Shown here one piece after another: positions 13,810-54,384 of a DNA stretch of 64,000 bases. The stretch's first letter is position 1; each line of letters starts with the position of its first letter. A program made the position numbers and the translations under genes. The notes under the pieces were generated by a model. It worked only from the letters and a program-made list of their open reading frames with translations. It was not told the DNA's origin and did not search any database. Source of the DNA: a bacterium (GTDB taxonomy: Bacteria > Patescibacteriota > Patescibacteriia > SG8-24); NCBI GenBank assembly GCA_021824285.1, contig JAKAKZ010000004.1, positions 225-64,224 on the forward strand. The letters run 5' to 3'.

Positions 13810-13812
13810 TCA

Positions 13813-13839
13813 CACGGCCCGCTTGGGCCGTGTTTTTTT
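13813..13839 (+). terminator. rho-independent terminator
   Basis: cacggccc-gctt-gggccgtg followed by ttttttt. Confidence 0.6.
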
Positions 13840-13924
13840 GTGGACGAATTCGTTGAACCATAAGCTGACGCCCGTGAGTCAGCAGCCGCTGGACGGGATG
13901 CTCTGCGCCAGCGGACCCAGCGGC

Positions 13925-13953
13925 TGCGACAAAAAACCGGCCCGCAAAGGGCC
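13925..13953 (-). terminator. rho-independent terminator for 13961..14605
   Basis: ccggccc-tttgc-gggccgg with a T-tract on the minus strand. Confidence 0.55.
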
Positions 13954-13960
13954 GGTCGGT

Positions 13961-24225: not shown

Positions 24226-24366
24226 AGTTGAGAGTTCGAAGTTGATAGTTGAAAGTTCCGAATCGCAGATGACTTTCAACTTTTCCCGCCTCTTTAGGCG
24301 GGACCCCGCCTTCTTTGACTAAAGATAGGGGGCGGGGCAACTACGAACTTTCAACTGCCCGACGGC
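24226..24366. repeat. composite dispersed repeat: AT-rich IR flanks plus a two-hairpin CCCCGCC core (family A)
   Basis: gttgagagtt..gttgatagttgaaagtt / actttcaact around the core tcccgcc-tcttta-ggcggga ccccgcc-(loop)-ggcgggg at 24284-24347. Near-identical to the 25833-25975 copy. Confidence 0.6.
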
Positions 24367-25832: not shown

Positions 25833-25975
25833 GTTGAAAGTTGAGTGTTGGAAGTTGAGAGTTCCGGTCGATTGTTGAAAACAATAAACTTTTCACTTTT
25901 CCCGCCATTTGGGCGGGACCCCGCCTTCTTTAACTAAAGATAAGTGGCGGGGCAACCCTCAACTCTCAACTTCCC
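25833..25975. repeat. composite dispersed repeat (family A) immediately upstream of pheS
   Basis: gttgaaagttgagtgttggaagttgagagtt ... tcccgcc-atttg-ggcggga ccccgcc-ttctttaactaaagataagtg-gcgggg ... caaccctcaactctcaacttcc. Confidence 0.6.
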
Positions 25976-39465: not shown

Positions 39466-41541
39466 TCATTCCAGATGGACCTTGTTCAGTGCGTTAGAGG
39501 ATAGTACCGCTTCCGCCGTCTTCTCCTGCTCACCTCCCAACATAGCCACGGCGGCCTTCACTTCCTGGATGAGCCGGGCATCACCGAGCGAGGCCACCCG
39601 GAATCCCGGAAACCCGGATTGCAGCTCGCCCAAAAGTTCGCCGGGGCCGCGCATGGCCAAATCCTTTTCTGCGAGATCAAAACCGTCCTGCAGCTCGACC
39701 ATGGCGCGCAGCCGTTCCTTTTCCGCCGCTTCGTCGGTGGACGGCAGCAGCAGGCAGTAGGACTGGTGCTCGCTGCGGCCCACGCGGCCGCGGAACTGGT
39801 GCAGCTGGGCCAGTCCGAAGCGCTCGGCTCCGGAGATGCACATCACAGTGGCGTTCGGCACGTCGATTCCGACCTCCACCACCGAAGTGGACACGAGAGC
39901 CATGATCTTCCTTTCCAGAAAATCGCGCATCACGGCCTCCTTCTCCGCCGCCGCCAGGCGGCCATGCAGCAGACCGACCCCAATGCCGGGCAGCTCCACC
40001 TTGGACAGCCGATCGAATTCCTCTTCCGCGGACACCGTCTCCACCGCCTCCGACTCCTCGATGAGCGGACAGACCACGAAGGCCTGCCGACCAGCGGCTA
40101 TCTGTTCCCGGATGAAATCATAGGCGTCGGTGCGGCGGCTGGCCGGCACGAGCCGCGTCAGGATCGGTTTACGGTCCTTGGGTTTCTGCCGGAGCAGGGA
40201 AAGGTCCAAATCGCCGAGGACCGTGAGCGCCAGTGAGCGCGGGATGGGCGTCGCGGTCATGGACAGCAGGTGCGGCTCCACGCCTGGTTCCGCGCCCTTC
40301 TCGCAGAGCAATTGCCGGGCCCGGACGCCGAAGCGGTGCTGCTCGTCCACGACCGCCAGCGCCAGACGGCGGAACCCGACGGCTTCCTCAATAAGCGCGT
40401 GGGTCCCAACCACGACCGGCACGCGGCCGGCCGCGATATCGTCCGCCAGTCGCGCGGCCTCGGCCTTGTTGGCGCAGGCGAGCTCCTTGCCGTCCGCGAA
40501 GCAGCGGCGATAGGCGTTGGTCCAAAGCGCCACGGAAACCGGCTGGCCGGCGAAGACCTTCTTGAGCGACTCGTAATGCTGCTTGGCCAGGATTTCGGTC
40601 GGGGCCATAAGCGCGCTCTGGCAGCCCGAAGCGGCCGCGTTAATCATGGCGATGGCCGCGACCACGGTCTTGCCACTGCCCACATCGCCGTCGAGCAGGC
40701 GGTTCATGGGTGCGGCCTTAGCCATGTCGAGCAGCGCCTCCCAAGCGGCGCGCCGCTGGTCGTCCGTGAGGCGGAACGGTAGTGCGGCCACAAGACGCCG
40801 GGTGACGGCCTCGTCGAACCGTACCGGAATCCCCTTTTTACCCTGCCGCAGTCGGCGCAACTCGGCCATGGACAGCTCCAGACGGAACAGCTCGTCGAAA
40901 CCGAGACGGCGGCGGGCCGCATCGCGTCCGTCATGTGTCGCCGGAAAATGTGCCTCACGCACCGCCTCCGCCAGGCTGACCAGGCCGAAACGCCGCCGGA
41001 CCTGCCCAGGCAGCGTCTCCTCCAACTCTGCGGCAAGCGGTTCGGCCGTGCGCACCAGGCGGCGCATCAGCGCCTGGCTGATGCCCTTAGGCAAGGAATA
41101 GACCGGGAGGAGCGGCGACAGGTAGCCGCGTTCGCTTGTCGTCGGCTCATGCAGCGGACTGATAAGCCGGAGCCCGAATTTAGAGGCAGTCACCTTGCCG
41201 GCCAACCTATAGGTCGAGCCGACGGTGAGCGACTTCTGCAGATACGGCTGGTTGAACCAGAGTGCCGTCAGTTTCCCGCTGTCGTCCTTGAGGACGGCCT
41301 CCGTGAGCGACATGCGCCGGCCCCAGGCCCGGCGGCTGCGGACCTTCTCCACTTCGGCGATGACCGTAACCTGCTCCCCCGCTCGCGCGTCGGCCAACTT
41401 CACGCAGCGGCTGAAATCCTCATAGCGGAACGGGAAATGGAAAAGCAGATCGCGCACGGTGCGGATTTCGATGGAGTTCAGGGCGGAAATGGCGCTGCGG
41501 CTTTTCGGGCTCAAGACCGAGACCGGGCTGGAGAGGTCCAT
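39466..41541 (-). CDS. recG: ATP-dependent DNA helicase RecG
   Basis: 691 aa with wedge domain, DVGSGKT Walker A, DEQHRFGV and helicase C motifs. Confidence 0.9.
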   Translation of the reverse strand: MDLSSPVSVLSPKSRSAISALNSIEIRTVRDLLFHFPFRYEDFSRCVKLADARAGEQVTVIAEVEKVRSRRAWGRRMSLTEAVLKDDSGKLTALWFNQPYLQKSLTVGSTYRLAGKVTASKFGLRLISPLHEPTTSERGYLSPLLPVYSLPKGISQALMRRLVRTAEPLAAELEETLPGQVRRRFGLVSLAEAVREAHFPATHDGRDAARRRLGFDELFRLELSMAELRRLRQGKKGIPVRFDEAVTRRLVAALPFRLTDDQRRAAWEALLDMAKAAPMNRLLDGDVGSGKTVVAAIAMINAAASGCQSALMAPTEILAKQHYESLKKVFAGQPVSVALWTNAYRRCFADGKELACANKAEAARLADDIAAGRVPVVVGTHALIEEAVGFRRLALAVVDEQHRFGVRARQLLCEKGAEPGVEPHLLSMTATPIPRSLALTVLGDLDLSLLRQKPKDRKPILTRLVPASRRTDAYDFIREQIAAGRQAFVVCPLIEESEAVETVSAEEEFDRLSKVELPGIGVGLLHGRLAAAEKEAVMRDFLERKIMALVSTSVVEVGIDVPNATVMCISGAERFGLAQLHQFRGRVGRSEHQSYCLLLPSTDEAAEKERLRAMVELQDGFDLAEKDLAMRGPGELLGELQSGFPGFRVASLGDARLIQEVKAAVAMLGGEQEKTAEAVLSSNALNKVHLE

Positions 41542-41559
41542 ATGCGCCTATATCGTATC

Positions 41560-41571
41560 GGGGACTGTCCC
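41560..41571. promoter_or_regulatory. GGGGACTGTCCC palindrome about 20 bp upstream of the recG start. The same 12-mer occurs twice at 54541-54578.
   Basis: Perfect dyad GGGAC-T-GTCCC, candidate operator. Confidence 0.35.
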
Positions 41572-41625
41572 ATTTAGGCAAAAATCAATCAAACGAAAAA
41601 CACCGGTGTTCCCGGTGTTTTCCGA

Positions 41626-41724
41626 TGGTGCGCCCGGCACGATTCCCCCGCCACCCATCTTTAGTCAAAGAAGGCGGGGTCCCGCCAACGGCGGGAGAAC
41701 GTGCGACCTCATCCTCCGCAGGGG
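41626..41724 (-). pseudogene. duplicated 3' fragment of tRNA-Arg (anticodon arm to CCA) with a family-A element inserted in the T-loop
   Basis: Matches tRNA-Arg positions about 29-76 plus 45 nt of downstream flank including the terminator. The T-loop attc|gaa is split by the 52-nt ccccgcc...ggcggga element at 41646-41697. Confidence 0.5.
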
Positions 41725-41912
41725 TCAGGCGCGAGACACGCAGCGCCTGGCGGGCGGCAAAAGCCGCCCGGGCTTGTCGGTTCTGTTTTTTGACCGAGCC
41801 GAAGGCGAGAAATACGCGCACGGCCTGACCAATATGACACATCGGCTGGTGGGACGGCTCCAGGCGCATCCCTGCGAAAACAGAAAACACCGGTGTTCCC
41901 GGTGTCCTCCGA

Positions 41913-41990
41913 TGGTGCGCCCGGCACGATTCGAACGTGCGACCTCATCCTCCGCAGGGATGCGCTCTATCCAAACTGAGCTACGGGCGC
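41913..41990 (-). tRNA. tRNA-Arg (anticodon read as GCG)
   Basis: Cloverleaf: acceptor GCGCCCG/CGGGCGC, D-arm GCTC-AGTTTGGATA-GAGC, anticodon stem CATCC/GGATG with loop CTGCGGA, T-arm GCACG-TTCGAAT-CGTGC, encoded CCA. A terminator hairpin follows. Confidence 0.7.
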
Positions 41991-42124
41991 GGCTTATTTT
42001 CTGCTTCCAAAGAAGGGGCTAACCGGCTCGGCGGCGACTTCCCCGCCCCAAGACTGACGCCGAATACGATAACACAACTCCCCAATTTTGGGAAGGGGCT
42101 TACCGTCCGACCGGTAGACTAACT

Positions 42125-42646
42125 CTAGAGCTTAAGGAAACGCCCGATGAAATCGCTGGCCGTTGGCTGAGTATTGATGCGGTCCTCCTTCAAAAACCTA
42201 CCCAGGATAGGCCGAATCTCCTCCGGCAGGACATCCGACAGGTCGATGCCGACCTCGCCCTTGAACAGGTCGCGGGTGCGCAAATAGACGCTCTGAACCA
42301 CGGGCGGCTCATAGACTACACGGAAACTTTCAATGGAAGAAAAGGGCAGGAACTCGCGGCCGATCTGTATTCCGCGTTCCGTAATGGCCATCCGCAGGAC
42401 ACGCGGTTCAGCGGCCGCGTTCAGGTAAATGACCAGGGCGAACAGCAGGATAAGCAGGGCGAACAGGAAGTTCGCAGTCGCGACGGCGTAGATGAGCAGG
42501 GCGATGCCCAAACCGGCGGAAATGCCGTACCAAAGCAGGCCGCGCTCATAGTGCGGCCGTTCCGAAAACTCCCAGGCGATCAGCACCTGCGGCTCCATAA
42601 GCTCGGCTACCTCTGTGGTCGCTTGGTCCTGAACTTGGTCGGTCAT
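42125..42646 (-). CDS. membrane protein with bacterial PH (YdbS/YdbT-like) domain
   Basis: 173 aa with a two-TM hairpin, then a beta-rich region (FRVVYEPPVVQSVYLRTRD...). Confidence 0.55.
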   Translation of the reverse strand: MTDQVQDQATTEVAELMEPQVLIAWEFSERPHYERGLLWYGISAGLGIALLIYAVATANFLFALLILLFALVIYLNAAAEPRVLRMAITERGIQIGREFLPFSSIESFRVVYEPPVVQSVYLRTRDLFKGEVGIDLSDVLPEEIRPILGRFLKEDRINTQPTASDFIGRFLKL

Positions 42647-42760
42647 AAGCTTATTTAGGCTAACGCCTACCTCTTATTTATAGCGTATTCCGGTCATCTT
42701 GACAAAAGGCCCTAAATGGGCTAAGCTACGCAGTTCTTTAAACATGGAAAGGAGAACGGC

Positions 42761-43600
42761 GTGTTCGCGAACGAGTTTGGTATCCTGCCGCAGCTGTCTG
42801 ACCAAGAGGAACCGATTCCCCTCCCCGGAGGGGTGGCCGACGAGAAACTGCTCGGCACCATCAACCACGTCCTGCGCCAGCACGGGCTCGACTCCTGGAC
42901 GGCGATCCAGTTGGGCCGGCCCGACCGGTGCGAGGTCATCGACCTGAACGGCTACGCGACGCTCAACCCGGGCCGCGTCCGACTCAACCTGAAGATCAAG
43001 GACGGCGACCAGACCTACGATACGCACCTCAACGTCGGCGGCCGGTTCGCCTTCGTCATCCCGATCGTGACCCTCACGGAGCGGGACGCGAGCATCCGCC
43101 CGGAAGACGAGGGGCTGCATCTGCTGACTCGCTCGCGTCTCGAGGGGCGCCAGGAGGAGGCCGGCTGGCTGAAGACGTTCGGACCCGAAGAGGCCGCCAC
43201 CATCCGGCAGTTCCACCTGCTGGGAACTTCCTGGGAGGCGCCGCGCAAGCTGCTCATGGAGTTCGACGAGAACCGCGAACTGGATCCGTTCGCCGGACCG
43301 GCCCGCGAGGTGCTGCAGAGCGCCTTCGGCGACGACTACGTGGCGGCTTTGGACCAGGCGTCAGTGATGCCGCTCGGCGCGCTGCGCATCAAGGGCGAGT
43401 TCGCCTTGGCCCGCGCCTACTTCTTCCGCGCCTGCATCTACGGCAAGCTCAGCTGGAACGACCTGCGAGGCCGCGTGATCCGCATTCCGCTCAAGAAGGT
43501 CAGGCCGGCGCTCAATCGGCTGGCTGGCCTCGCGGACACCGAGACCTTCGCCGTGCTGTCCTCCGCCATCCTCAAGGCACCGGCCGGAACCTTCGGCTAA
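42761..43600 (+). CDS. hypothetical protein
   Basis: 279 aa with a GTG start after AAGGAG and a TTGACA-17-TAAGCT promoter-like sequence upstream. No family recognised. Confidence 0.55.
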   Translation: MFANEFGILPQLSDQEEPIPLPGGVADEKLLGTINHVLRQHGLDSWTAIQLGRPDRCEVIDLNGYATLNPGRVRLNLKIKDGDQTYDTHLNVGGRFAFVIPIVTLTERDASIRPEDEGLHLLTRSRLEGRQEEAGWLKTFGPEEAATIRQFHLLGTSWEAPRKLLMEFDENRELDPFAGPAREVLQSAFGDDYVAALDQASVMPLGALRIKGEFALARAYFFRACIYGKLSWNDLRGRVIRIPLKKVRPALNRLAGLADTETFAVLSSAILKAPAGTFG

Positions 43601-43826
43601 ACAGCCGCTTTTGACCCCCTTTCGGGGGTCTTTTTTATAGATTAGGCCTTCACAAAGGGCGTCAGATGTATTAGGATACCGCTTGCCGAATGGAGGGTTG
43701 CGCCGAATGGGTCGCCGTGAGACATCGAACGGCGACGGGCGGCAAAAGACGCCCTGGCTTCCCGGCTCATTTTTTTGACCGAGGCGGAGCCGAGACCTAT
43801 AGGTTCTTTTGACCAAACTAACGCAT

Positions 43827-43915
43827 GGAGGGTTGCGCCGAATGGTAAGGCAACAGTTTGCTAAACTGTGACCTCGAAAGGGGTCTTATAGGTTCGATTC
43901 CTATACCCTCCGCCA
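43827..43915 (+). tRNA. tRNA-Ser (anticodon GCT), class II with long variable arm
   Basis: Acceptor GGAGGGT/ACCCTCC, anticodon stem ACAGT/ACTGT with loop TTGCTAA, variable arm GACCTCGAAAGGGGTC, T-arm ATAGG-TTCGATT-CCTAT, encoded CCA. The D-arm is slightly irregular in my hand fold. Confidence 0.7.
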
Positions 43916-43920
43916 CGCAA

Positions 43921-43950
43921 AAACCGGAGCCTTCTGGCCCCGGTTTTTGC
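43921..43950 (+). terminator. terminator-like hairpin after tRNA-Ser
   Basis: aaaaaccggagcc-ttct-ggccccggttttt. Confidence 0.45.
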
Positions 43951-44049
43951 GTTGTCAGACTGGCTCACGTTCCAGCTAACCCGCCTGATTTTCGGATCAT
44001 GACTACTCCCCTGTCCGCCCACTCGGCCACCCATGTTTACTTTTAAAGC

Positions 44050-44148
44050 GGAGGGGGTGAGATTCCCCCGCCACCCATCTCTAGTCAGAGAAGGCGGGGT
44101 CCCGCCCCAAAGGCGGGAGAACTCACGGACCCTTGCGGGTCAACAGTT
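44050..44148 (-). pseudogene. duplicated 3' fragment of tRNA-Ser(TGA) with a family-A element inserted in the T-loop
   Basis: gagattc|[ccccgcc...ggcggga at 44066-44120]|gaactcacggacccttgcgggtcaacagtt. The insertion point in the T-loop is the same as in the tRNA-Arg fragment. Confidence 0.5.
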
Positions 44149-44164
44149 TGGCCGCCTGACGACT

Positions 44165-44230
44165 TTCCGGCGGAGGGGGTGAGATTTGAACTCACGGTGC
44201 CTTTCGGCACGGCAGTTTTCAAGACTGCTG
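44165..44230 (-). pseudogene. second tRNA-Ser-like 3' fragment (anticodon arm, variable arm, T-arm, acceptor 3' strand), sequence-variant paralog
   Basis: Reverse complement reads GCAGT-CTTGAAA-ACTGC CGTGCCGAAAGGCACC GTGAG-TTCAAAT-CTCAC CCCCTCC. No matching 5' acceptor strand upstream. Confidence 0.45.
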
Positions 44231-44349
44231 CCTTGTTCGGCTCGACAATAATCTGAAGGTCTCGCCGAACACCAGGGCAGCCAATGCTGCCCGCAGACGC
44301 TGCGTCAACTCGCGTCCGCCCACTCGGCCACCCATGTTTACTTTTAAAG

Positions 44350-44434
44350 CGGAGGGGGTGAGATTCGAACTCACGGACCCTTGCGGGTCAACAGTTTTCA
44401 AGACTGTCCTCTTAAACCGCTCGAGCACCCCTCC
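44350..44434 (-). tRNA. tRNA-Ser (anticodon TGA), class II
   Basis: GGAGGGG-TG-CTC-GAGCGGTTTAA-GAG-G-ACAGT-CTTGAAA-ACTGT-TGACCCGCAAGGGTCC-GTGAG-TTCGAAT-CTCAC-CCCCTCC-G. CCA is not encoded. Confidence 0.75.
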
Positions 44435-44489
44435 ACCCTAAAAATAAACTCCGCGGCTATCCTATTATATATGAAGGGGTTTGTTAAGC

Positions 44490-45245
44490 CTATCGGCCTA
44501 AACCTGGGCCGCCGCGCAAGACGGCCAAGGCGTACACTTGGCGCGCTCCTGCGGTTTTAAGCGCTGCGGCGCAGTCGTTCAAGGTAGCCCCGGAAGTTAG
44601 GACGTCGTCCACCAACAGGCAGGATGGGGGGACGCTCTGGCCAAGCCGCGCGGCAAAACTGCCGGCCCGCAGGCGGCGGCGATCAGCTTCGGGCGTGGCG
44701 GCCTGCCGCCGCAAAGAGAAGCGGCGGCGCAGCAATCCCACCTCGCATTCGGTGCCGAAATGCTCTGCAAAGGCGCGGGCCAGAACCGCCGCCTGATTGA
44801 AGCCGCGCAGGGCCAGGCGATACGGATGGAGCGGCACCGGCACGGCGACCGCCAGGGGCGCCAGTCCACGCCAGAACGGCGATGAATCCCAAGCTGCGCG
44901 GCAGAGGCCAAGAAGGGCACGGCCTTCCGCGAGGCCACCCTCGTACTTCCAGCGGCGCAGCAGCGTGCCCAGCGCCGGTTCCGCGTACGAACCAAGATAC
45001 ACGGCCCCATCGAGCGGCGACTTTCCGCACAAGCGCCGACCGCAGCGGCCGAGCAGCGCCGTATGCCGACCGCAGCCGGGACAAACAAAAACGGCCGCCA
45101 GGCGGCCGCTGATCTTGGCTCGACACCCGTCGCACATGACCGGCCCTTCGGAACCGCAACCGGAACAGCGGTCAGGAAAGACCGCCGCGAGTACCGTCCT
45201 CAATAATTCCTTTTCTCTCCCCAATCCACGGAATCCGTCTTCCAT
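44490..45245 (-). CDS. comF: ComF-family protein (competence, phosphoribosyltransferase domain)
   Basis: N-terminal Cys4 zinc finger (CSGCG...CDGC...CPGCG) and the PRTase motif LLVDDVLTSGATL. Confidence 0.8.
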   Translation of the reverse strand: MEDGFRGLGREKELLRTVLAAVFPDRCSGCGSEGPVMCDGCRAKISGRLAAVFVCPGCGRHTALLGRCGRRLCGKSPLDGAVYLGSYAEPALGTLLRRWKYEGGLAEGRALLGLCRAAWDSSPFWRGLAPLAVAVPVPLHPYRLALRGFNQAAVLARAFAEHFGTECEVGLLRRRFSLRRQAATPEADRRRLRAGSFAARLGQSVPPSCLLVDDVLTSGATLNDCAAALKTAGARQVYALAVLRGGPGLGR

Positions 45246-45901: not shown

Positions 45902-47797
45902 TCAGGTCTTCATTTCCTTGGCCCGTTGGGCGGCCTCAAACTCCTTCTTGGCCTGCTCGATTTCCAGTAGCTGCTGCGGGTTCGTGGTGACGACCTGGTC
46001 CTCGGCATAGGAGGCCACGACCTTGATGGCCGCGTGCTTCATGCCGGCGAAGAATATGCCCTCGCCCACCCCGCCCTCAAGCAACAGGTATTTCTCCCCC
46101 TCGGTCAGCATGAAGGTCTTGGCGATGTTGTCGATAGCCGCCGGCGACTGCTTCAGAAGCAGCTGCATGGCGGAGTTGGTCACGATGGCCTGGCCGTAAG
46201 GCGAGCGCAGGAAGTCGTTGACGTCCTGGGTGATGGTCGTCACGCCGAGATAGTATTTGCGGCAGCGCTTCACGAGCGCGAAGATAAACTTGGCGGAGTC
46301 CTCGTGCTGCATGAGCCACCAGGCCTCATCAATCACCAGGATGCGTTTCTTGCGCTCGGAGCGGACCACGTTCCAGATGTAGTTGACGATGGCGTAGACC
46401 GCGAGCGGGCGCAGCTCGTCCTCCAGGTCACGGACCGAGAAGACGACGAGGAGGTTCTGCATGGCCACGGTGGTCGGCGAGTTGAACAGGCCGGAGAACG
46501 TGCCCTCGGTGAACTTCTTGAGCTTGATGACGATGTCCTTCGTGCCTTCCATTCCCTCCAGAACCTCAATGAAGTCCTGCATGATCGGCGGCTCGACGCG
46601 GGCCAGGTCGGCGTCCGGCGTGATGTCCTTCTTGGCGTAGGTTTCGAGCAGGGCGCGGTCCAGCACGGAGTCCTCTTGCGGCGTGATCGTGCCGAGCATG
46701 ATGCGCAGCAGGCCCTTTACCGTGATGACCGCGCTGCGGATGATATCCTCGACCGAAACCTCCTCCCCCACCGGCCGCGGCAGGTCGAACGGGTTGATCT
46801 TGGCGTCGGAGGCCAACGAGATGTTGATGTAGGTCCCGCCGACCGCGTCGGACAGGTGTTTGTATTCCATTTCCGGGTCGATGACGATGACCTCGGTGCC
46901 CATCATGAGCGAGCGCAGGATCTCCAGCTTCACGGTGTAGGATTTGCCCGCGCCGGAAGTGGCGAACACGATATAATTCGCGTTCTGCATGGAGAACCGG
47001 TCGAACAGGATCAGACTGTTGTTGTGGCGGTTGATGCCGAAAAGGATGCCGTTGTCCGAGGTCAGGTCCGCCGAGATGAACGGAAACGAGGAGGCGCACG
47101 GCGACGAGTTCATGTTGTAGGTGATCATGAGCTCGTCGTTGCCGAGCGGAATCGTGGAATTGAATCCCTGCTCCGCGGTGTAGAAAACGCGCTTGGTGTA
47201 GATCAGCTTGCCGCCGAAAATGGACTCAACGTCCTCGCTCAGCTTGTCGAGGGCCTTCTTGTCCTTGGCGTAGACCGTGACGTAGAGGGCAAACTGGAAG
47301 AAGTGCTCCGTGCCCTGGGTCAGGCTGTCGCGGAGGTCCTCGACGTCGCGCAGGGCCTGCTCGGAAATCGGGTCGCGCGGCTTGCCCTTCTCGGCATCTG
47401 AAAGGATGGTCGCCTCGAGCACGCCGGCTTTCTTCTTGAGCTGTTTCAGGATGACGGGCGCCTTCACCGGATAGAAGAACATGGCCACGTCCAGCGGGTA
47501 GTTCATGTTAATCACCGGCGAGAACCAGCCCAGCGAGATGTAGCGGGGATATGTGACCACGAAGATGGTGCGCAGGAAGGTCTCGCCGAGCTGGACGAGC
47601 GTCGGGTCGACTTTCATGCCCGCCGGCGCGATGAGGTCACGAATGGAGACGACGCCCTTGCGGTAGACGCGCTCCTCCTCCAGGAGCTCGCGCTCGCGCG
47701 AGATCTTTTCGGTCTCCTGCCGCTTCTTCACCTCTGCCGCCGTGTCCTTCTTCGGAGGCGGCGCGACAGCTCCTAATTGTGCGGGATTGAAGGCCAT
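45902..47797 (-). CDS. virB4: VirB4/TrbE-family T4SS ATPase, C-terminal 631 aa (Gram-positive PrgJ/TcpF type)
   Basis: Walker A FATSGAGKSYTV, Walker B RILVIDEAWWLM, and the conserved GETFLRTIFVVTYPRYI block. Confidence 0.85.
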   Translation of the reverse strand: MAFNPAQLGAVAPPPKKDTAAEVKKRQETEKISRERELLEEERVYRKGVVSIRDLIAPAGMKVDPTLVQLGETFLRTIFVVTYPRYISLGWFSPVINMNYPLDVAMFFYPVKAPVILKQLKKKAGVLEATILSDAEKGKPRDPISEQALRDVEDLRDSLTQGTEHFFQFALYVTVYAKDKKALDKLSEDVESIFGGKLIYTKRVFYTAEQGFNSTIPLGNDELMITYNMNSSPCASSFPFISADLTSDNGILFGINRHNNSLILFDRFSMQNANYIVFATSGAGKSYTVKLEILRSLMMGTEVIVIDPEMEYKHLSDAVGGTYINISLASDAKINPFDLPRPVGEEVSVEDIIRSAVITVKGLLRIMLGTITPQEDSVLDRALLETYAKKDITPDADLARVEPPIMQDFIEVLEGMEGTKDIVIKLKKFTEGTFSGLFNSPTTVAMQNLLVVFSVRDLEDELRPLAVYAIVNYIWNVVRSERKKRILVIDEAWWLMQHEDSAKFIFALVKRCRKYYLGVTTITQDVNDFLRSPYGQAIVTNSAMQLLLKQSPAAIDNIAKTFMLTEGEKYLLLEGGVGEGIFFAGMKHAAIKVVASYAEDQVVTTNPQQLLEIEQAKKEFEAAQRAKEMKT

Positions 47798-47800
47798 ACG

Positions 47801-48502
47801 TCAGATTTCGGTACCGGAATCGGTGACCCGGAGCTTGCCGGGGTCCTGGATCTTCTGCGTGTCGTAGGAATCAGGATTGTAGACGCGGTAATACAGCTCG
47901 ATGAGGCCCTGGGTGTCGAGCGTCACGGCCGACAGGCCCATGCTGCGGAGCGAGCCGACCATGCGGTCGGCGCGGGTCATGAGATCGCCGCGCTGGCGCT
48001 GGAAGCGCTCCTCGGCCAGACGCACCGCGGCGCCGGGCATGAAAGCGGCCTGCAGGCGCTCGAAGAAGCTCTTCTGCCGGTCGGAAAGCGGATTGTACTG
48101 CACGACGACGAAAAACTGCTTCTGCATGATCTGGCCGAGCGACACGAGTTCCTGCACGAAGGCGCGATAGTCGGCGATCTGCACCTTGAGCAGCTCGTTG
48201 GACTGGGACTTTTCCTGCTCGCGCAGGCGATCAATGTACTTGTCGATGTTCAGGCGCCGCGACTGCACGACAATCTGCAGCGGAAACTCCAGCGAGTTCA
48301 GAAAGGCGACGTACTGCGCGATGATGGCGTTCTGCTCGTCTTCCGACTTGAGCGCAAAATTAATGGAGGACACGAGCATCACGGCGCGCATGGTACCGTC
48401 CTTGAGCACCACCACGCCCTCCTTGATTTCGGCGATGTCCAAGTAGCGCTGGGTGGCAGCGCCCGGTTTCGTGCCGGCAAGTTGCGGTGACTGCATGTCC
48501 AT
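47801..48502 (-). CDS. VirB4 N-terminal region (233 aa), in the same reading frame as the ATPase ORF and separated from it only by TGA plus one codon
   Basis: The block KDGTMRAVMLVSSINFALKSEDEQNAIIAQYVAFLNSLEFPLQIVVQ resembles the N-terminus of Gram-positive conjugative VirB4 ATPases. The stop at 47801-47803 is in frame with the ATG at 47795-47797. Confidence 0.55.
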   Translation of the reverse strand: MDMQSPQLAGTKPGAATQRYLDIAEIKEGVVVLKDGTMRAVMLVSSINFALKSEDEQNAIIAQYVAFLNSLEFPLQIVVQSRRLNIDKYIDRLREQEKSQSNELLKVQIADYRAFVQELVSLGQIMQKQFFVVVQYNPLSDRQKSFFERLQAAFMPGAAVRLAEERFQRQRGDLMTRADRMVGSLRSMGLSAVTLDTQGLIELYYRVYNPDSYDTQKIQDPGKLRVTDSGTEI

Positions 48503-48503
48503 A

Positions 48504-48929
48504 TCACTCTTCGGGGTTGAACACGCCGCCGGTGTTTACGACGAGCGACAGCTCGGCGAGTTTGGACGCGGCCAGGGCCTCCTTCACGATCTTGGGCTTG
48601 GGCGGCGGCGGTGGTGTCTCGCGGACGAAAGCCAGGACTTCGGCGTCGGTCGGTTCCTTATTCCAGACGCGCAATCCGGGCCGACGCGTGGTGAGAATCA
48701 GGTTGAGGACGAAATAATGGAAGGCCTGGCCGTTAATGCGCGTGAAGGCGAAAACGCTGAAGAGTATGAAGGTCGGGATACCGACGAGCAGGAACAGCGC
48801 GAAATCGAACATCTTGTAATACGCGAACTCCAGGCCCAGCATGGCCAATTCAATAAGGAACTGACGGGCCGTCAGCGGACCAAGAATCTTGTCCTCGGTA
48901 TCGATGAATTGGGGAACGGCGTATTTCAT
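48504..48929 (-). CDS. VirB3/PrgI/TcpE-like small 2-TM protein
   Basis: 141 aa with two adjacent TM helices after EDKILGPLTARQFL and a Pro-rich tail. It sits immediately upstream of VirB4, as in Gram-positive T4SS operons. Confidence 0.4.
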   Translation of the reverse strand: MKYAVPQFIDTEDKILGPLTARQFLIELAMLGLEFAYYKMFDFALFLLVGIPTFILFSVFAFTRINGQAFHYFVLNLILTTRRPGLRVWNKEPTDAEVLAFVRETPPPPPKPKIVKEALAASKLAELSLVVNTGGVFNPEE

Positions 48930-49052
48930 CGGCTGGTCTCTACCTTACGTACATTTTTAACGCACAAAACCACGGCTATGAGGACCGTTTTAGCCTATTT
49001 TTAGGTTTATTTTAGGCTAATCAAGTATACCACGACCGGGGTGTGGACATCA

Positions 49053-51110
49053 TCAGCCGAAACGGAGCGTCCGATTCAGGGTCATGATGGCATCGAACTG
49101 CGGTTTGCTGAGGTTGGGCTGCTTGGCGGCCTCGCGCGCGGCAATCACATCCAGCACCGGCTTGCCCTCGAGACTGGCGCGAAGCAGCTCCAGATACAGA
49201 CGGTTGACTTCGGACTCGTGCCAGGCCTTTATCCCCTGCTGTTTTACCTCAAAGCCCTGATCCTCGAGCAAGTCGATCTTATCCTTGATCTTGAGCGTGG
49301 CCTCCGTCGGTTCCTTGGAGAGCCGGATGAAGTCCGCAAGCGTCATGGAGCGAAGTTCCTCGACCGGACCGGTGAGGCGCGGGGCCGCGATGATGTCGGC
49401 AACTATCGGTTTCTGCGTGGCGACTGGCTGGACCGGCGGTGCGGGCGGGCGCTGGGGCACGGAAACATAGCCCGGACCAGAAACGTGGGGCGCGGACGGT
49501 CCGCTCGTCGGCAGGTTCATCGGCGGCGCGGCCGTGGCGGTCGGCGGTTGCGGCGGTTCCGGCCTGGGGGCGGACGGCGGAGCCGGCTTGGCCGGCGGCG
49601 CTGGCGGCACAGCTGGCTTTGGCGCCGGCGGCGGCGTCAGAGGTGCGCTCGGCGGAACTGGAGGCTTCGGGGCCGCGGGGGCGGCGGTCGGAGCCGATTG
49701 GCCCACGGACGGTTGCTTCATGGCCGGGCCGGTGAGGTCCGGCAAGACCGGCTCTGGTTTCGGCGGCGGTGCGGCCGGGACGGCAGGACGCGGCGGAGCT
49801 GCCGCAGCGACAGCGGCTGACGGAGCTGCGGGCCTGGGGGCCGCGACAACCGGTACGGTGACCGGTGCGGAGGGAGCTTTCGGTGCCGGAGTCGGTGCGC
49901 TCCCCGGCGGCATCTGGATACCGGAACGCTGGACCAGATCCTGGTAGCGACGGTCTAGATCCTGCTTCTCCAGACGCTCGGTGCGCTCCTGCTGGAGCAG
50001 ATGGCGGCGCGCCTGTTCGGCTACGAATTTCTCCTTGTCCGCCGCGACCTGGCCGACGGCCTGCGACAGGAACTGCTGGCGCAGCGGCTTAAGCGCGGTC
50101 ATGACGCGGTCGGCGTCTGCCTCGGATAGGCCCAAGCCGCCAGTGGCGACCTGCGAAGTAAGTTTGGATTTCGTCTCCAGCGCGTCGCGCAGGTCGCGCA
50201 GATAAAGCGCGGATGCCATGCGAAAACGGTTGAGCGACTCTGGCGTCGGGCTTGGCAAGGCGGCCGCCTGCACGGCCCGTTCGACGAAGAAATCGAGGTC
50301 GCCGGCCGGCTCGGCGGCAGGCTCCATCGTCCTGCGCAAGGCCTCAACCTCCTTGATGTCCTCGACCTGGACTGTTTCGAAGGTGGGGACAGTGGGGAGG
50401 TTTGGAGGTTTGGAGGTTTGGAGGTTTGGAGTGGCCGTCGGCGCTTCCGCAATCGGAGGGATGACGACGGGTTTCGGTTTTTCGGCGGCCAGCACCTCAT
50501 CGGGAACGACGACGATCGCCCTCGCCTCAAGCGCCTTCATCTCCTCTTCCGCAGCCGCGACAACAAGCGCGGCCTCATCGCCGTTCAAACCAACGCCCGA
50601 CGTCTTCGCCGGACCCATGAGCGTCTCCGCCAGCTGTTCCACCTTGCGGCCGCCGAGGGCCACGGAGGCCAGAACCTTATCAAGGCGGCGGTCCAGGATG
50701 TCGTCGGAAACGACCACGCCGGACTTGCGGCGGATGACCGCGACGACGTCCGATGCCGCGACCTTCTTTTTGAAGATGTTAGGGTCGCCGCCTTCCTGCA
50801 GGATGAGAGCGGGGATGTCGGAATTCAGCCAATCCGCGATGTCCTGAAAATCATAGCCGAGTATCTTTTGGGCCACGTCAGGATAGCGGCCGTTCCCCTT
50901 GAGCAGGTCGCGCAGGAAGGCGAGGAAGGAGGACGGGGTAGTGACGCGGAAATAAACGTCAAACAGGGCCTCGGCGACGGCGAAGCGCTGACCCTCGTCG
51001 ATCAGCGGGAAAATTTCCTCGGCGTACCGCTCAGCCAACTGGGCGTCGAAAATGTGCGCCCGAACCTGGTCGGGCAGGCCACGGAGCTGTTCAAGTGAGT
51101 ATTTCGGCAT
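49053..51110 (-). CDS. hypothetical 685-aa protein with central Pro/Ala-rich low-complexity region
   Basis: No TM. Globular N- and C-terminal regions. It contains an in-frame copy of the family-B repeat encoding PNLQTSKPPNLP. Confidence 0.6.
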   Translation of the reverse strand: MPKYSLEQLRGLPDQVRAHIFDAQLAERYAEEIFPLIDEGQRFAVAEALFDVYFRVTTPSSFLAFLRDLLKGNGRYPDVAQKILGYDFQDIADWLNSDIPALILQEGGDPNIFKKKVAASDVVAVIRRKSGVVVSDDILDRRLDKVLASVALGGRKVEQLAETLMGPAKTSGVGLNGDEAALVVAAAEEEMKALEARAIVVVPDEVLAAEKPKPVVIPPIAEAPTATPNLQTSKPPNLPTVPTFETVQVEDIKEVEALRRTMEPAAEPAGDLDFFVERAVQAAALPSPTPESLNRFRMASALYLRDLRDALETKSKLTSQVATGGLGLSEADADRVMTALKPLRQQFLSQAVGQVAADKEKFVAEQARRHLLQQERTERLEKQDLDRRYQDLVQRSGIQMPPGSAPTPAPKAPSAPVTVPVVAAPRPAAPSAAVAAAAPPRPAVPAAPPPKPEPVLPDLTGPAMKQPSVGQSAPTAAPAAPKPPVPPSAPLTPPPAPKPAVPPAPPAKPAPPSAPRPEPPQPPTATAAPPMNLPTSGPSAPHVSGPGYVSVPQRPPAPPVQPVATQKPIVADIIAAPRLTGPVEELRSMTLADFIRLSKEPTEATLKIKDKIDLLEDQGFEVKQQGIKAWHESEVNRLYLELLRASLEGKPVLDVIAAREAAKQPNLSKPQFDAIMTLNRTLRFG
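50394..50423. repeat. family-B repeat unit (ggaggtttggag x3) embedded in frame inside the CDS
   Basis: Same unit as the intergenic 27831-27913 element. Confidence 0.5.
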
Positions 51111-51135
51111 GATATATGGCCGTTAGACCATGGTC

Positions 51136-54100
51136 CTAGCGACCGAGCTTCCGTTCGATGGCGTCGAGCAGGCGGGTGACTTGGGACTTGTCCGATTGGG
51201 ATGAATCCTTGAGCTTGTCGACCAGACCCTCGAGCGCCGAGGTCTGATCAGCGCCGGCATCGTTGATCGCCTCAATCAGCTTGTCGAAATTCTCGGGGGT
51301 GGGCCGGACACTGACATCATCCAGCGCATCTTTCACGGCTCCAGAAACGGATTCGGCGACGCCGGAGAAGGCCCGCTCGATCTCCTTCTTGTCGATCCAG
51401 TCGCGGCCGCCGCGACCGCCCGACGAATCAGAACCGTAGGACCTTGGCGCTTCCGTCGGCCGGGCACCCGGACCGCCCATCTCTTTGAGCCGCGCGCTGG
51501 CGGCCTTCAGGTCTTCAGTGGCTTGCCGCAAGGCTTCGGTTAGTGCTTCTAGTGTCTGCGGATTGGCACCGCCAGTCTTGGCTTTGTCATATTCCTGCTG
51601 GGCCTGCTGGGCCTTATCACCGGCCTTCTTCACCACATCCTGCTGCATACCCGCCTCGGTGGCGTCGAACTTGGGCATCTTGTAGCCGCGCCGGGCAAGA
51701 ATCTCCTCGATCTTTCCGATATTGTCGGCGGCTTCCTGACGCTCCTTATCGATCCGTTCCAGATCGCGTTTCTTCTGAAGTTCACCGCCGTTATAGTCGA
51801 AACTCGGCGTCGCCTGGATGCTGTCGCGCTCCGCGCCGAGCGAGAGGACTTTCGACTTCGCCTCGTCAGCATTCTTGAAGGCGTCCTGCGTTTCGCGCTC
51901 GACGCGCTTACGGTCCTTGACCCCGGACTCCCCGCCTTTCTCGGACACGATCTGCATCACCGGATTATTGATGGAGCGGCTCAAGTCGCGGTTGGCCTCG
52001 GCCCAGCCGCCTTTGATGGCGTCGGTTACCGCTTTGAGAAGCGCCGACTCGTTGGCCGATGCGGTGCCGCTCGCGGACTTCTCGGCCAAGCCGAGCAGGG
52101 CACCGCCTTTCATGCCGTCGATCAGCGCCTGCATGGCCTCCGTCGGCTCCCCGTCCTTGGTCAAGGACGATGCGTCAATCTTGGAAAGGGCCTCCGGGCC
52201 GTTGGACTTCACGAATTCCTGAAACGCAGCCTTGCCGAATTCGCTGCCGAACTGGCCTCCGGCGCCAAGGTCGAAGGCCTTGGCCGCACCGGCGGCATCT
52301 TCAGCCGTGCGGGCCACGGCCTGCCGCGCGTGCAGCGATTCCTCGGGGTGCTCGGCTATGTACTTCTCGTTCTCCTCGCGGTAGGCCTTTTTCTGCTTGC
52401 CTTCCAGCTTGGATTCGACGCGGTCGGCGTCATCCCGGAGGGCCACGTCATTGGCGTATTTGCGGATCTGCGCCTCGGTAAAGTCCTTGGGCTGCTGTTT
52501 GCCCTCACGCACCTCGCGGGCCATCTTGGAAGAGAGCTCCTGCAGCTTGTCCTCGAGAGTCTCCCCTTCTTTCAGGGCTGCCGGATCAAACGCCTCATCC
52601 GGGAAGTTCTTCTTGGCTGCCTCAACCGCGTCATCGACGGTTTTCTTGTCGGCGCCAGCTTCCTTCATGCGGCGGATGACCTCATGCGCGCCGCCGGCGT
52701 CATGGACTTTGGCGTTGCGCTTCTCCAGGGCCTGCTTGAGCGCGGCCACGCGTTCCACCTCGGTGAATTCCGCGGCGCGGCCGGTGAGGATGGCCTCGAT
52801 GCTGTCTTTGCTGAGCTCCTTCTGGGCCTTGGCGTAGATGCCGGCCTGACCTTCCTTGCCGGTCTGCTGAAGCTGACGACCGATGCGCCGGCCTTCAGCT
52901 GCGGCCTCTTGGCCGGATTTCACGATGCCGGCGCCGAGACGGCCGCCGGTGACGCCCTGGACAGCGCGGCCGGCTGCCTGACGCAGGCCGCCACGGAGCA
53001 ACGGCGTGACCCCCTCGCGGGCCTTACCGATTTTCTCGGTGTACTGCGCCGTAGTCAGGGCGATGCGCTCCTTGTAGCGGTCATCGCCGGCCTTCATCAT
53101 GGCGCCGACGGCACCGCGCGCGCCTTCCACGCGCTGACGCAGACCGGTCCGCTTGTATATCGCGCCGAGGGCTCCGCCGACGACGGCACCAGGCGCGAGC
53201 TTCTTGGCCCCCGGCAGGCCGCCGCCGAAGCCGCCGCCGCTAAGCTGCTGCGCGAAATCCACGCCCAGATACATGATGGCCAGCGCCATGATGAAACTGA
53301 GCAACGAATCCATTTTCATGAAGTTCGTCCGGAAGACAGCGTCCGCTCCCGATTCCGCATTGAACTGCAGCTGCTTGACGGTGGCCAACGACAGCCAGAG
53401 GAAAAAAGCCAGCACCGGACCGGTGAGGATCTGGGACTGGAGGTTGGACCACCACTTGCCATAGTAGGACTGCGTAGCCTTGAAGGGCATGCCGCGCATG
53501 GCGAAGGCCAGAGGCGAAAAGATGACCACGCCCCAAAGAACGACGATGCGCTTGAGGATGAAGAGCGTCATGATGAGGATGACGCCGCAGGCCGCGAGCA
53601 GGAACAGGCAGGTCGCGAAATAGGTCAGGAACATCGTAAAGGTAGTCTGGGCAGCGGAGAGAGTCAGTCCGGTGCTGTCCGGGCTCATGACGTTCATCTG
53701 CGTGGTGTTCAGCGACGTGATGAGGTTCTGTGCGGCCGCGCCCTTGAAGCCGTTCACGAAAGTCAGCATGACCACCTGACCGATATCGATCAGCACACCG
53801 ACGAAAGTCCGCGAAAAATTCACGAGAATCGCCATGATCAGCAGACGCGAGAGCTTCTTCCCCTTATAGCTGTATTCGTCCATGCCGAGAATCGTCGCGA
53901 ATGCCATCACAAGCATGCTGACCACGATGAGCATGTTGGCCATGTCACGCACGACGAGCCAGCCGGCGGTGACGACGGGATTGTTCACGAAGCTGTTGTA
54001 CTGGATGAAGAAAATCAGCAGTTCGATAAGCAGCGACAGGATCTGGCCGATGGCGAAGGCCAAGGCCTCGAAAACCCAGTAGATGAAGCTCTGGATGAAA

Positions 54101-54384
54101 CCCTGCTCTGTCTGCGCCGGCGGCTTTTTTTCATCGGCGGCGGTATTCGAGGCCGGGGGTGTCGTGGCCGATCCTTGACCTGATCCGCCAGCGGTCTGTG
54201 CGAGCTGGACCGTGCGCACCGCGGACAGGTGGTTCCCGGCGGCCAGTGCCGGACGGGCAAAGTGCGGCAGGACCGAAATCAAAACGCCAAAAACCGCCAC
54301 AGCGGCGATCATCCGCAATGCAGCGTGGCCCGAGGCGCGATGCCGGTTCTGATGGCGCGTGGCTTCGGGTTGGAAAAACAGCAT
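51136..54384 (-). CDS. VirB6/TrbL-like polytopic membrane protein with about 650-aa charged coiled-coil C-terminal extension
   Basis: 1082 aa. The N-terminal 420 aa carry a signal-like segment plus 7-8 TM helices in the TrbL/VirB6 pattern. The C-terminal half is Lys/Glu/Ala-rich. Confidence 0.6.
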   Translation of the reverse strand: MLFFQPEATRHQNRHRASGHAALRMIAAVAVFGVLISVLPHFARPALAAGNHLSAVRTVQLAQTAGGSGQGSATTPPASNTAADEKKPPAQTEQGFIQSFIYWVFEALAFAIGQILSLLIELLIFFIQYNSFVNNPVVTAGWLVVRDMANMLIVVSMLVMAFATILGMDEYSYKGKKLSRLLIMAILVNFSRTFVGVLIDIGQVVMLTFVNGFKGAAAQNLITSLNTTQMNVMSPDSTGLTLSAAQTTFTMFLTYFATCLFLLAACGVILIMTLFILKRIVVLWGVVIFSPLAFAMRGMPFKATQSYYGKWWSNLQSQILTGPVLAFFLWLSLATVKQLQFNAESGADAVFRTNFMKMDSLLSFIMALAIMYLGVDFAQQLSGGGFGGGLPGAKKLAPGAVVGGALGAIYKRTGLRQRVEGARGAVGAMMKAGDDRYKERIALTTAQYTEKIGKAREGVTPLLRGGLRQAAGRAVQGVTGGRLGAGIVKSGQEAAAEGRRIGRQLQQTGKEGQAGIYAKAQKELSKDSIEAILTGRAAEFTEVERVAALKQALEKRNAKVHDAGGAHEVIRRMKEAGADKKTVDDAVEAAKKNFPDEAFDPAALKEGETLEDKLQELSSKMAREVREGKQQPKDFTEAQIRKYANDVALRDDADRVESKLEGKQKKAYREENEKYIAEHPEESLHARQAVARTAEDAAGAAKAFDLGAGGQFGSEFGKAAFQEFVKSNGPEALSKIDASSLTKDGEPTEAMQALIDGMKGGALLGLAEKSASGTASANESALLKAVTDAIKGGWAEANRDLSRSINNPVMQIVSEKGGESGVKDRKRVERETQDAFKNADEAKSKVLSLGAERDSIQATPSFDYNGGELQKKRDLERIDKERQEAADNIGKIEEILARRGYKMPKFDATEAGMQQDVVKKAGDKAQQAQQEYDKAKTGGANPQTLEALTEALRQATEDLKAASARLKEMGGPGARPTEAPRSYGSDSSGGRGGRDWIDKKEIERAFSGVAESVSGAVKDALDDVSVRPTPENFDKLIEAINDAGADQTSALEGLVDKLKDSSQSDKSQVTRLLDAIERKLGR

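Follow-up and report, generated by a model that had tools for sequence, protein, structure and literature searches.

How a working tRNA gene comes to be followed by a partial copy of itself, and how the T-loop of that copy comes to be opened by a hairpin element, is the question raised by the tRNA-Arg locus at positions 41560–41990 of a 64,000-nt stretch of the patescibacterial contig JAKAKZ010000004.1. The whole of this stretch (assembly GCA_021824285.1, contig positions 225 to 64,224, forward strand) is called the window here. The inserted element, named HP, consists of two hairpins. Judging from Rfam and the searchable literature, it is a small palindromic repeat that had not been described before, and its habit of residing in T-loops is unusual. 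The explanation that we regard as probable is a partial tandem duplication of the tRNA gene, after which the spare T-loop became the landing site of a small, non-autonomous mobile palindrome similar to repetitive extragenic palindromes (REPs) or to HUH transposons.

Split partial copies of tRNA-Arg and tRNA-Ser

ARAGORN found three tRNA genes in the window, namely tRNA-Arg(GCG), tRNA-Ser(GCT) and tRNA-Ser(TGA), and all of them were confirmed by Rfam. The tRNA-Arg(GCG) gene (41913–41990, minus strand; Rfam tRNA score 66.6 bits) is intact and functional, and its call in the first-pass annotation of the window was confirmed by both tools. At its 3' side lies a trailer (41877–41912, minus strand) in which the sequence and a repeat finder revealed a terminator-type hairpin, ACACCGG-GAA-CACCGGTG, followed by a T-run. 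A second, partial copy is located downstream of this gene, in the tRNA's own direction. The repeat finder matched 41591–41645 to 41878–41932 (55 nt, 93% identity), which corresponds to a 35-nt trailer with the terminator hairpin and to tRNA-Arg positions 57–76, and matched 41697–41723 to 41933–41959 (27 nt, 100% identity), which corresponds to positions 30–56. A BLAST comparison of the tRNA with its flanks gave 100% identity to the intact gene for both tRNA pieces. The piece with positions 30–56 (41697–41723, minus strand) contains the anticodon stem-loop, the variable region, the 5' side of the T-stem and the TTC of the T-loop, while the piece with positions 57–76 (41626–41645, minus strand) contains the GAAT of the T-loop, the 3' sides of the T-stem and acceptor stem, and the CCA. 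It is followed by the second copy of the trailer (41591–41625, minus strand; terminator-like site 41624–41594), and the repeat stops just past the T-run. The duplicated 3' half with its terminator flank is therefore as described earlier, except that the shared trailer measures about 35 nt and not 45 nt.

The two pieces of the duplicated copy are separated by HP (41646–41696, minus strand; covariance model score 74.1 bits), which reads TCCCGCC-GTT-GGCGGGA followed by CCCCGCC-TTCTTTGACTAAAGATGGGT-GGCGGGG and splits the T-loop between C56 and G57. The junction on the plus strand is GATTC/.../GAAC and is unambiguous, and deletion of HP restores GTTCGAATC exactly. The two-hairpin insert noted in the first-pass annotation was thus found at this point, with a length of 51 nt and not 52 nt. 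The start-to-start period of the duplication is 287 nt. The spacer between the copies (41724–41877) had been estimated as about 160 nt of non-coding DNA with no integrase; it measures 154 nt, the absence of an integrase was upheld, and the spacer holds a module of a second repeat family, M, and an inverted piece of tRNA-Arg.

The second locus is built like the first. An intact tRNA-Ser(TGA) gene (44349–44434, minus strand; ARAGORN, Rfam score 55.9 bits) is accompanied, with a period of 301 nt, by a duplicate of its positions 38–86 with a 35-nt flank (44013–44149, minus strand; repeat finder and BLAST), the T-loop of which is split as GTTC/GAAT by a 53-nt HP copy (44066–44118, minus strand; covariance model score 66.1 bits). 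Both flanking pieces (44119–44149 and 44013–44065) are 100% identical to the intact gene, and the T-loop position is the same as in tRNA-Arg, as had been claimed. Neither the Arg nor the Ser duplicate includes the 5' strand of the acceptor stem, the D-arm or the 5' side of the anticodon stem.

HP copies and their target

The HP family includes inserts of 49–70 nt. Five copies were found in the window using a covariance model, and about 45 more were found in related contigs using a regular expression together with the covariance model; these metagenome contigs and loci are designated here by L-numbers. A metagenome scan with an 18-nt HP core returned 60 loci, about 35 of which were genuine copies, and no match to the HP query appeared in 100 shuffles of the window; its recurrence there far exceeds what chance would give. 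Single-stranded HP DNA is predicted to fold into the two hairpins; the fold of the copy at 41646–41696 has an energy of −17.5 kcal/mol (z = −4.9), and the z values of HP copies range from −4.2 to −4.9. All four arms of HP are mutually complementary. The arms can also pair into a middle hairpin (GGCGGGA/CCCCGCC), which together with the TTCTTT after it has a terminator-like score, an attenuator-like geometry (e.g., 41673–41686, minus strand). The inner hairpin varies, with compensating changes (tcttt/aaaga versus tctct/agaga) and an optional extra stem-loop.

The three remaining copies in the window are located outside tRNA sequences on the plus strand. One (24284–24337) lies between a 121-aa open reading frame (ORF) downstream of pheS and pheT, in a palindrome that has 33-nt arms and consists of CAACT-type short repeats; HP interrupts the left arm, and the other arm is the uninterrupted, empty version. 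Another (25900–25952) lies between an M50 peptidase gene and pheS. The third (2472–2527; 39.2 bits with the covariance model), downstream of nusG, is diverged and carries a compensatory double change in its first hairpin (TCCCGAC/GTCGGGA). Such non-tRNA copies are located in long imperfect palindromes of short tandem motifs that differ by genome (24210–24360 and 25860–25980 in the window, 18800–18960 in L088). The motifs are CAACTnn in the window, CAACCCCT in L088, and AGCGGGAA, AATTACY and CAAACTA elsewhere.

A search of the window against Rfam 15 at the gathering threshold and at E ≤ 1 gave tRNAs only, and no family matched HP. A strict 30-nt HP pattern had 0 matches among the GTDB species-representative genomes, in which this lineage is not represented, and no HP was found in viral contigs. 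No description of HP or of bacterial repeats targeted to T-loops was found in the literature, the coverage of which was incomplete, and novelty is unproven to that extent.

In nine cases both flanks of HP are tRNA-derived and removal of HP restores the T-loop. The loci concerned are tRNA-Arg and tRNA-Ser of the window, tRNA-Ser in L088, tRNA-Arg in L091, L103 and L153, tRNA-Phe in L105 (twice), tRNA-Ser(CGA) in L140 and tRNA-Ile in L141. At other loci, namely L125 (twice), L153b and L109, tRNA sequence is present on the 3' side alone, starting at position 56 or 57 of tRNA-Leu, tRNA-His or tRNA-Arg(CCG). In L110, a second copy resembling tRNA-Ser(TGA), in the opposite orientation, has HP in its anticodon loop (TTTT/HP/CAAG on the HP strand). 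At least 12 HP copies abut tRNA-derived sequence, and all 12 have the same orientation relative to the target motif. The tRNAs with HP junctions in the T-loop or another loop are Arg(GCG), Arg(CCG), Ser(TGA), Ser(CGA), Ile, Phe, Leu and His, and they come from several genomes.

The flanks of 29 copies outside tRNA sequences were then compared. Upstream of HP, position −3 was G in 16 copies, position −2 a pyrimidine in 28 and position −1 T in 18, while downstream C was found at +1 in 26 copies and a purine at +2 in all 29. This target, approximately GYT/CR(A), is the core of the universal T-loop motif GTTCRA. No target-site duplication was found at any copy. In two comparisons of occupied with empty sites (the flank shared by L153b and L125, and the two palindrome arms beside pheT in the window), the consensus bases belong to the target and nothing is duplicated. 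In addition, 18 of 48 HP copies have an intact tRNA gene no more than 500 nt away, where 5.5 were expected and the maximum in 2000 random placements was 12. The non-coding DNA of the window (about 6.6 kb) has about eight free GTTCRA sites, half of which are T-loops. The target, combined with the lack of selection in spare copies, may thus be enough to explain part of the T-loop enrichment. The first-pass annotation had suggested that this element, there called family A, prefers tRNA T-loops, and the suggestion is well supported by the number of tRNAs and genomes, by the single orientation and by independent events at the Arg locus.

The locus in related genomes and the origin of the copies

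The window is 99.7–100% identical to contigs of one uncultured species (ENA ERZ27237563; NCBI GCA_027346945.1), and the named relatives of its RecG protein are Patescibacteria. A second genome scan, performed with RecG, gave only distant relatives (at most 49% identity) and no close relative among the GTDB species representatives. The Arg locus of relatives was taken from contigs with RecG homologues, in which the order of the 172-aa ORF (orf173), tRNA-Arg and recG is kept. Several states of the locus were revealed. In L095 (RecG identity 59%) the site is empty, with the tRNA and terminator only. In L093 and L094 (68%) there is a duplicate of tRNA-Arg positions 31–77 with the terminator, and its T-loop is uninterrupted. 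In L088, L089 and L092 (67%) the T-loop is split at the same place as in the window by a one-hairpin deletion derivative of HP, and part of the spacer is repeated after the last unit in L089. L091, from the same species in another sample, has two tandem units, one of which contains the full two-hairpin HP. In the syntenic locus of L103 (59%), the fragment begins with position 34, and a longer HP subtype splits it one base earlier (TT/CGAGT), whereas the window has TTC/GAAT and the short form; the insertion in L103 is thus an independent event at the same locus.

Presence and absence of HP were also compared at other sites. HP occupies L088 at 18857–18910, and the orthologous spacer of the window is empty. 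Conversely, L136 does not have the pheS/pheT copies of the window, and a 14-nt spacer without HP separates its pheS and pheT. The HP copy number varies greatly among relatives.

These comparisons bear on the possibility that HP is immobile, i.e., a structured element selected by the host (a terminator, attenuator, processing signal or protein-binding site) that is near tRNA genes by chance. The strong predicted fold, the mutually complementary arms with the terminator-like middle hairpin and TTCTTT, the compensatory double changes in the copy at 2472–2527 and in the inner hairpin, and the intergenic position of the copies are all consistent with such a role. However, presence differs at orthologous sites, copy number is very variable among relatives, both orientations relative to neighbouring genes occur, and HP bisects tRNA loops exactly while leaving both halves intact. 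We consider an immobile HP to be highly improbable.

Partial copies are not limited to tRNA-Arg. Of the 31 tRNA genes at the HP-bearing loci, about 20 have such copies in their neighbourhood, in direct or inverted orientation, and most of these copies are 100% identical. In L095, none of the three tRNA genes has one. L088 contains at 13760–14180 a complete second tRNA-Ser(TGA) in five pieces, split by three M modules and one HP. The interruption points are in loops, namely after G18G19, at the junction of the variable arm and T-stem, and at 55/56 or 56/57, and the joined pieces match 79 of 86 positions of the intact tRNA-Ser(TGA) with one substitution. In L105 (1–310), a tandem array contains at least three units of the upstream region and tRNA-Phe, the first two HP-split and the last intact, so that the interrupted copies are located upstream of the working gene. 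Removal of HP from the full-length spare tRNA-Phe copy in this array restores the tRNA call.

It could be proposed that the interrupted copies work as tRNA genes, either split or with introns, and that HP, together with M, is removed from their RNA. The five-piece copy in L088, which still matches 79/86 positions with a single substitution, the position of the insertion points in loops and the tRNA-Phe recognisable in L105 after removal of HP fit this proposal. In the window, however, the copies are without the whole 5' half and cannot form a tRNA, and an intact gene adjoins every case. No group I core was found, nor any Rfam intron family at E ≤ 1 in the region 41400–44700. A bulge-helix-bulge motif is also absent: the predicted fold sets TTC opposite GAA(T) and does not give staggered 3-nt bulges. 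To our knowledge, a splicing endonuclease is not known from Bacteria. The first-pass annotation had named an intron-containing gene as the outcome that would overturn its interpretation, and ARAGORN did not call a tRNA in the HP-removed Arg and Ser fragments either with or without its intron option, nor in the Arg fragment with HP left in place. The copies in the window are thus not genes with introns. We find the idea of functional interrupted genes scarcely credible. Should copies of the L088 type nevertheless be transcribed, with their inserts removed or their pieces joined, they would represent a multi-intron or split tRNA gene system without precedent in Bacteria.

A different use of the insert is assumed if the arrangement arose in one self-healing step. 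In this case, a composite unit (tRNA positions 57–76, terminator, spacer, tRNA positions 30–56 and HP) would have entered the original T-loop carrying a replacement 3' segment, with HP as its terminus. The arrangement can be derived formally from one insertion at 56/57. L125 and L153b share a left flank of at least 150 nt together with HP abutting different tRNA 3' fragments, and L105 shows the mirror order of HP, 3' piece, upstream region and 5' part. However, the flanks shared by L125 and L153b are equally explained by recombination between HP copies. L093 has the same duplication without HP, HP alone is found at many non-tRNA sites, and both the HP subtype and the junction differ between lineages at the same locus. 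One-step self-healing insertion is in our view highly unlikely. A related and bolder proposal gives both repeats a role: HP and M would home specifically to tRNA sequences at the two nucleotides of the elbow pair (M after G18G19, HP after U55/C56), and the interrupted copies would not be junk or, alternatively, the inserts would carry replacement tRNA segments and be self-healing. We give this proposal only a small chance.

The spacer also bears on the origin of the copies. The M module (41724–41810, plus strand, i.e., antisense to the tRNA; 83% identity by the repeat finder, and alignments) contains hairpin alpha (41726–41749), hairpin beta (41752–41769) and a third region with a promoter-like TTGACC-17-AATACG. 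M homologues were found at 43711–43795 (plus strand), upstream of the intact tRNA-Ser(GCT) gene (43827–43915, plus strand; ARAGORN, Rfam), at 44235–44319 (minus strand) inside the tRNA-Ser(TGA) array, and outside the window in L088 (13785–14105), L089, L093 (665–830) and L140 (300–416). M is a repeat of about 85–110 nt with three hairpins that adjoins tRNA sequence, and nothing in Rfam covers it at E ≤ 1. Alpha has a conserved loop (approximately GAGCTGGCG) and a freely covarying stem, beta has the form GGGCGGC-loop-GCCGCCC with covarying pairs, and gamma has a conserved, non-complementary CGAG/CGAG. Double compensatory changes were found in 12 of 19 alpha/beta pairs. M is always preceded by ...RGG, which several times is the D-loop G18G19. 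Next to M, the Arg spacer contains the piece GCGCATCCCTGCG (41864–41876, plus strand, opposite to the tRNA; 100% identity by BLAST), which corresponds to the 3' side of the D-stem, the 5' side of the anticodon stem and the anticodon. With GGCTCCAG upstream, it is probably the remnant of an inverted 5' half, and the same inverted piece was found in L088, L089, L091 and L092.

The tRNA-Ser genes have similar surroundings. A second tRNA-Ser(TGA)-type pseudogene, T2 (44169–44333, minus strand), was found as a partial Rfam tRNA match of 29.4 bits. Its 5' piece (44320–44333) is separated from the rest (44169–44234, with the uninterrupted T-loop TTCAAAT) by M (44235–44319), inserted after the GG of the D-loop. 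The joined pieces align to tRNA-Ser(TGA) of L103 and are of a different sequence type, the one found in L103 and L095. Upstream of the M module at tRNA-Ser(GCT), 43687–43710 duplicates 43822–43845 (24 nt, i.e., 5 nt of upstream sequence and tRNA positions 1–19, the latter at 43692–43710), and M gives the intact gene a promoter-like TTGACC-17-TATAGG. This layout is also present in L088 and absent in L095.

Such surroundings have to be considered when the duplication is explained by an integrase. The first-pass annotation likened the locus to att-site scars. According to this explanation, a tRNA-targeting integrative element that carried a tyrosine integrase recombined with tRNA-Arg in the region of the anticodon loop and brought its own copy of the tRNA 3' part and terminator, and its interior was later deleted to about 150 nt; HP would have arrived later and independently, or would be a portion of the former att site. 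tRNA fragments left as integration scars are well documented (PMC9897764). The direct repeat does start within the anticodon arm (at positions 30, 31 and 34 in the window, L093 and L103, respectively) and passes the 3' end, the two copies in L103 carry different terminators, as expected if one of them is of foreign origin, L095 has an empty site, L093 has an uninterrupted duplicate, and a Xer-like ORF, recognised by eye, adjoins one fragment-bearing tRNA cluster (L153). However, no integrase or cargo was found in or near the window locus: the genes there are recG and the 172-aa ORF, and Pfam analysis of the called genes revealed no recombinase, cargo or remnant. The spacer consists of M, which also precedes other tRNA genes, and the inverted tRNA-Arg piece. 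In addition, the 5' fragments, inverted fragments and complete spares around tRNAs are not products of a 3'-end integrase, and the amplification in L091 and the 301-nt period at tRNA-Ser fit homologous unequal exchange as well. The earlier comparison is thus supported only in part, namely by the direct repeat, by the empty site of L095 and by the uninterrupted duplicate of L093, whereas the lack of integrase and cargo, the tRNA-associated repeats of the spacer and the tandem array of L091 speak against it, and we consider an integration scar unlikely.

Both routes would fit the duplication, and tandem duplication is preferred to an integrase because the spacer consists of tRNA-associated repeats and because the same genomes carry 5' fragments, inverted fragments and complete spare copies. 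It is supported by the periods of 287 and 301 nt, by the amplification in L091 and by the partial repetition of the spacer in L089. The sequence of events can be proposed as follows. A functional tRNA-Arg(GCG) gene would have acquired a dead partial copy (positions 30–76 with the terminator trailer), most likely by tandem duplication or unequal crossing-over in a tRNA flank filled with repeats (inverted M and the inverted tRNA-Arg piece). HP would then have entered the T-loop of the spare copy precisely, without target duplication, in one orientation and at a target close to G-Y-T/C-R-(A). Insertion into the sole working tRNA copy would be lethal, and HP would be kept only in redundant copies, fragments and other intergenic sites. 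This would explain why every interrupted T-loop is located beside an intact gene. The anatomy of the locus, the precision of the junctions, the recurrence at many tRNAs and genomes, the occupied and empty sites and the target consensus are backed by the data. The enzyme and chemistry may be those of single-strand, HUH-type transposition, as for REP sequences and their REP-associated tyrosine transposases (RAYT) or for IS200/IS605 or IS91. HP is proposed to work like HUH elements on the basis of its precise insertion without duplication, short target, terminal hairpins and fixed orientation.

Mobilising enzyme and relation to known systems

A candidate enzyme for HP was sought in the gene context. 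No candidate cognate HUH transposase was found in about 300 kb of HP-bearing DNA, and a tblastn search of the window with a RAYT protein and with an HNH protein gave nothing. ORFs located between inverted HP pairs were considered as candidates and turned out to be ordinary genes. A RAYT-like gene in the HP-bearing contig L115 passes the Pfam Y1_Tnp threshold and scores 63.7 bits with NCBIfam REP_Tyr_transpos, below the cutoff of 80. This gene and two similar ones in L159 and L160 are classical REPtrons of the same group of organisms, and their REP family is distinct from HP.

Several other genes adjoin the tRNA sequences. L103 encodes at 9303–9977 (minus strand), beside tRNA-Ser(TGA), a free-standing HNH homing endonuclease of 224 aa (Pfam HNH_repeat and HNH). 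On each side of this gene lies a terminator copy followed by an inverted 3' fragment of tRNA-Ser whose end is inside the T-loop. A Xer-like tyrosine recombinase ORF, assigned by eye from its C-terminal motifs, is located in L153 (195–1148, plus strand) directly upstream of a cluster of tRNA-Arg(TCT) and tRNA-His in which HP-split fragments abound. In the window, a cluster resembling a type IV secretion system (T4SS) adjoins tRNA-Ser(TGA) at 45902–54384 (minus strand) and encodes VirB4/DUF87, TraC-like and PrgI-like proteins followed by proteins of 685 aa and 1082 aa. Its interpretation as an integrative conjugative element was rejected, since the same cluster is syntenic in the relatives L088 and L095, and it is probably a core feature of the lineage. 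Note that a single ORF of 2935 aa is located at 54627–63434 (minus strand).

A number of observations weigh against duplication followed by HP transposition. None of the window genes was identified by Pfam as a transposase or integrase, and no transposase belonging to HP was found. The RAYT-like genes (L115, 2560–3400; L159, 1–830; L160, 400–1100) are flanked by an inverted GTAG-type REP, GTAGCKGCAGGGCTTGTCCCTGCC, and not by HP. The short target alone does not fully account for the T-loop enrichment, and the junction is not uniform, being TTC/G in six tRNA cases and TT/C in six. Insertion of HP into the loops of any hairpin was tried as a more general rule and was rejected, as non-tRNA flanks pair no better than shuffled flank pairs. 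The outer stems of HP look invariant, which is partly forced by the search pattern and has little evidential weight; covariation in these stems was discarded as evidence, since the pattern had fixed those bases. Even where the layout looks old or is shared by distant relatives, the fragments match the resident tRNA at 100% identity, which calls for recent or recurrent events or for gene conversion. Finally, the sample is biased by ascertainment: most related loci were fetched for containing HP, and the frequency of HP-free fragments is not derivable from them.

Patescibacteria have tiny, streamlined genomes, and repeat families and dead gene copies are therefore unexpected here. This clade carries small structured repeats of at least two families (HP and M), each concentrated at tRNA genes, and partial or complete spare copies accompany most of the tRNA genes at the loci sampled. 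If HP targets the conserved T-loop, it would be a compact selfish element that lands on an invariant motif of an essential gene and survives only where a duplicate absorbs the hit. The intron-like or self-healing readings, if true, would bear on the origin of split and multi-intron tRNA genes. In practice, the split fragments break assemblies, can confuse tRNA annotation and mimic att sites in searches for genomic islands.

To evaluate the relation of HP to known systems, it was compared first with the REP, BIME and REPIN elements associated with RAYT. Like them, HP is a short, G+C-rich imperfect palindrome with many intergenic copies, the number of which varies between lineages, and REPs often occur as doublets. 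Small palindromes and genes can harbour REPs, RAYTs are regarded as the enzymes that mobilise them, and for some families no transposase is known (PMC3733652). RAYT genes also exist in the same group of organisms (L115, L159, L160). However, the HP boundaries are GYT/TCCCGCC...GGCGGGG/CR, without a GTAG or CGTC tag, and in the contigs examined RAYT genes are flanked by the REP GTAGCKGCAGGGCTTGTCCCTGCC and not by HP, none being present in the window. In addition, the defined target GYT/CR and the T-loop association were not found described for REPs.

HP resembles the IS91 and IS200/IS605 families in the absence of target duplication, the short specific target, the hairpins at both ends and the fixed orientation. 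IS91-family elements make no target duplication and have subterminal palindromes, and IS91, IS801 and IS1294 use the target 5'-GTTC or 5'-CTTG (PMC13181058); six HP junctions are GTTC/HP. In contrast to these families, HP is only 49–70 nt long, has a looser target (GYT/CR with a one-base wobble), and no cognate transposase was found for it. HP is assigned neither to REP/RAYT nor to the IS91 or IS200/IS605 families. The ends of HP, TCCCGCC/GGCGGGG, are similar to the inverted repeats of a classical miniature inverted-repeat transposable element, but no copy has a target-site duplication.

The locus as a whole is similar to att duplications at tRNA genes in the direct repeat of a 3' part beside an intact gene and in the empty site of a relative (PMC9897764). 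It differs from them in that integrase and cargo are absent, the spacer consists of tRNA-associated repeats and the T-loop is additionally split, and 5' fragments, inverted fragments and complete spare copies are also present in these genomes. The D-, variable- and T-loop interruptions of archaeal and red-algal multi-intron or split tRNA genes are comparable to the four interruptions of the L088 copy, whereas the organism here is a bacterium, there is no bulge-helix-bulge, the window copies are incomplete and every case has an intact gene beside it. Rickettsia palindromic elements (RPE) and intragenic REPs are likewise small palindromes that enter functional sequences of reduced genomes (PMC3733652). 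However, RPEs are located in frame inside coding genes, while HP, unrelated to them in sequence, is found only in non-functional tRNA copies and intergenic DNA.

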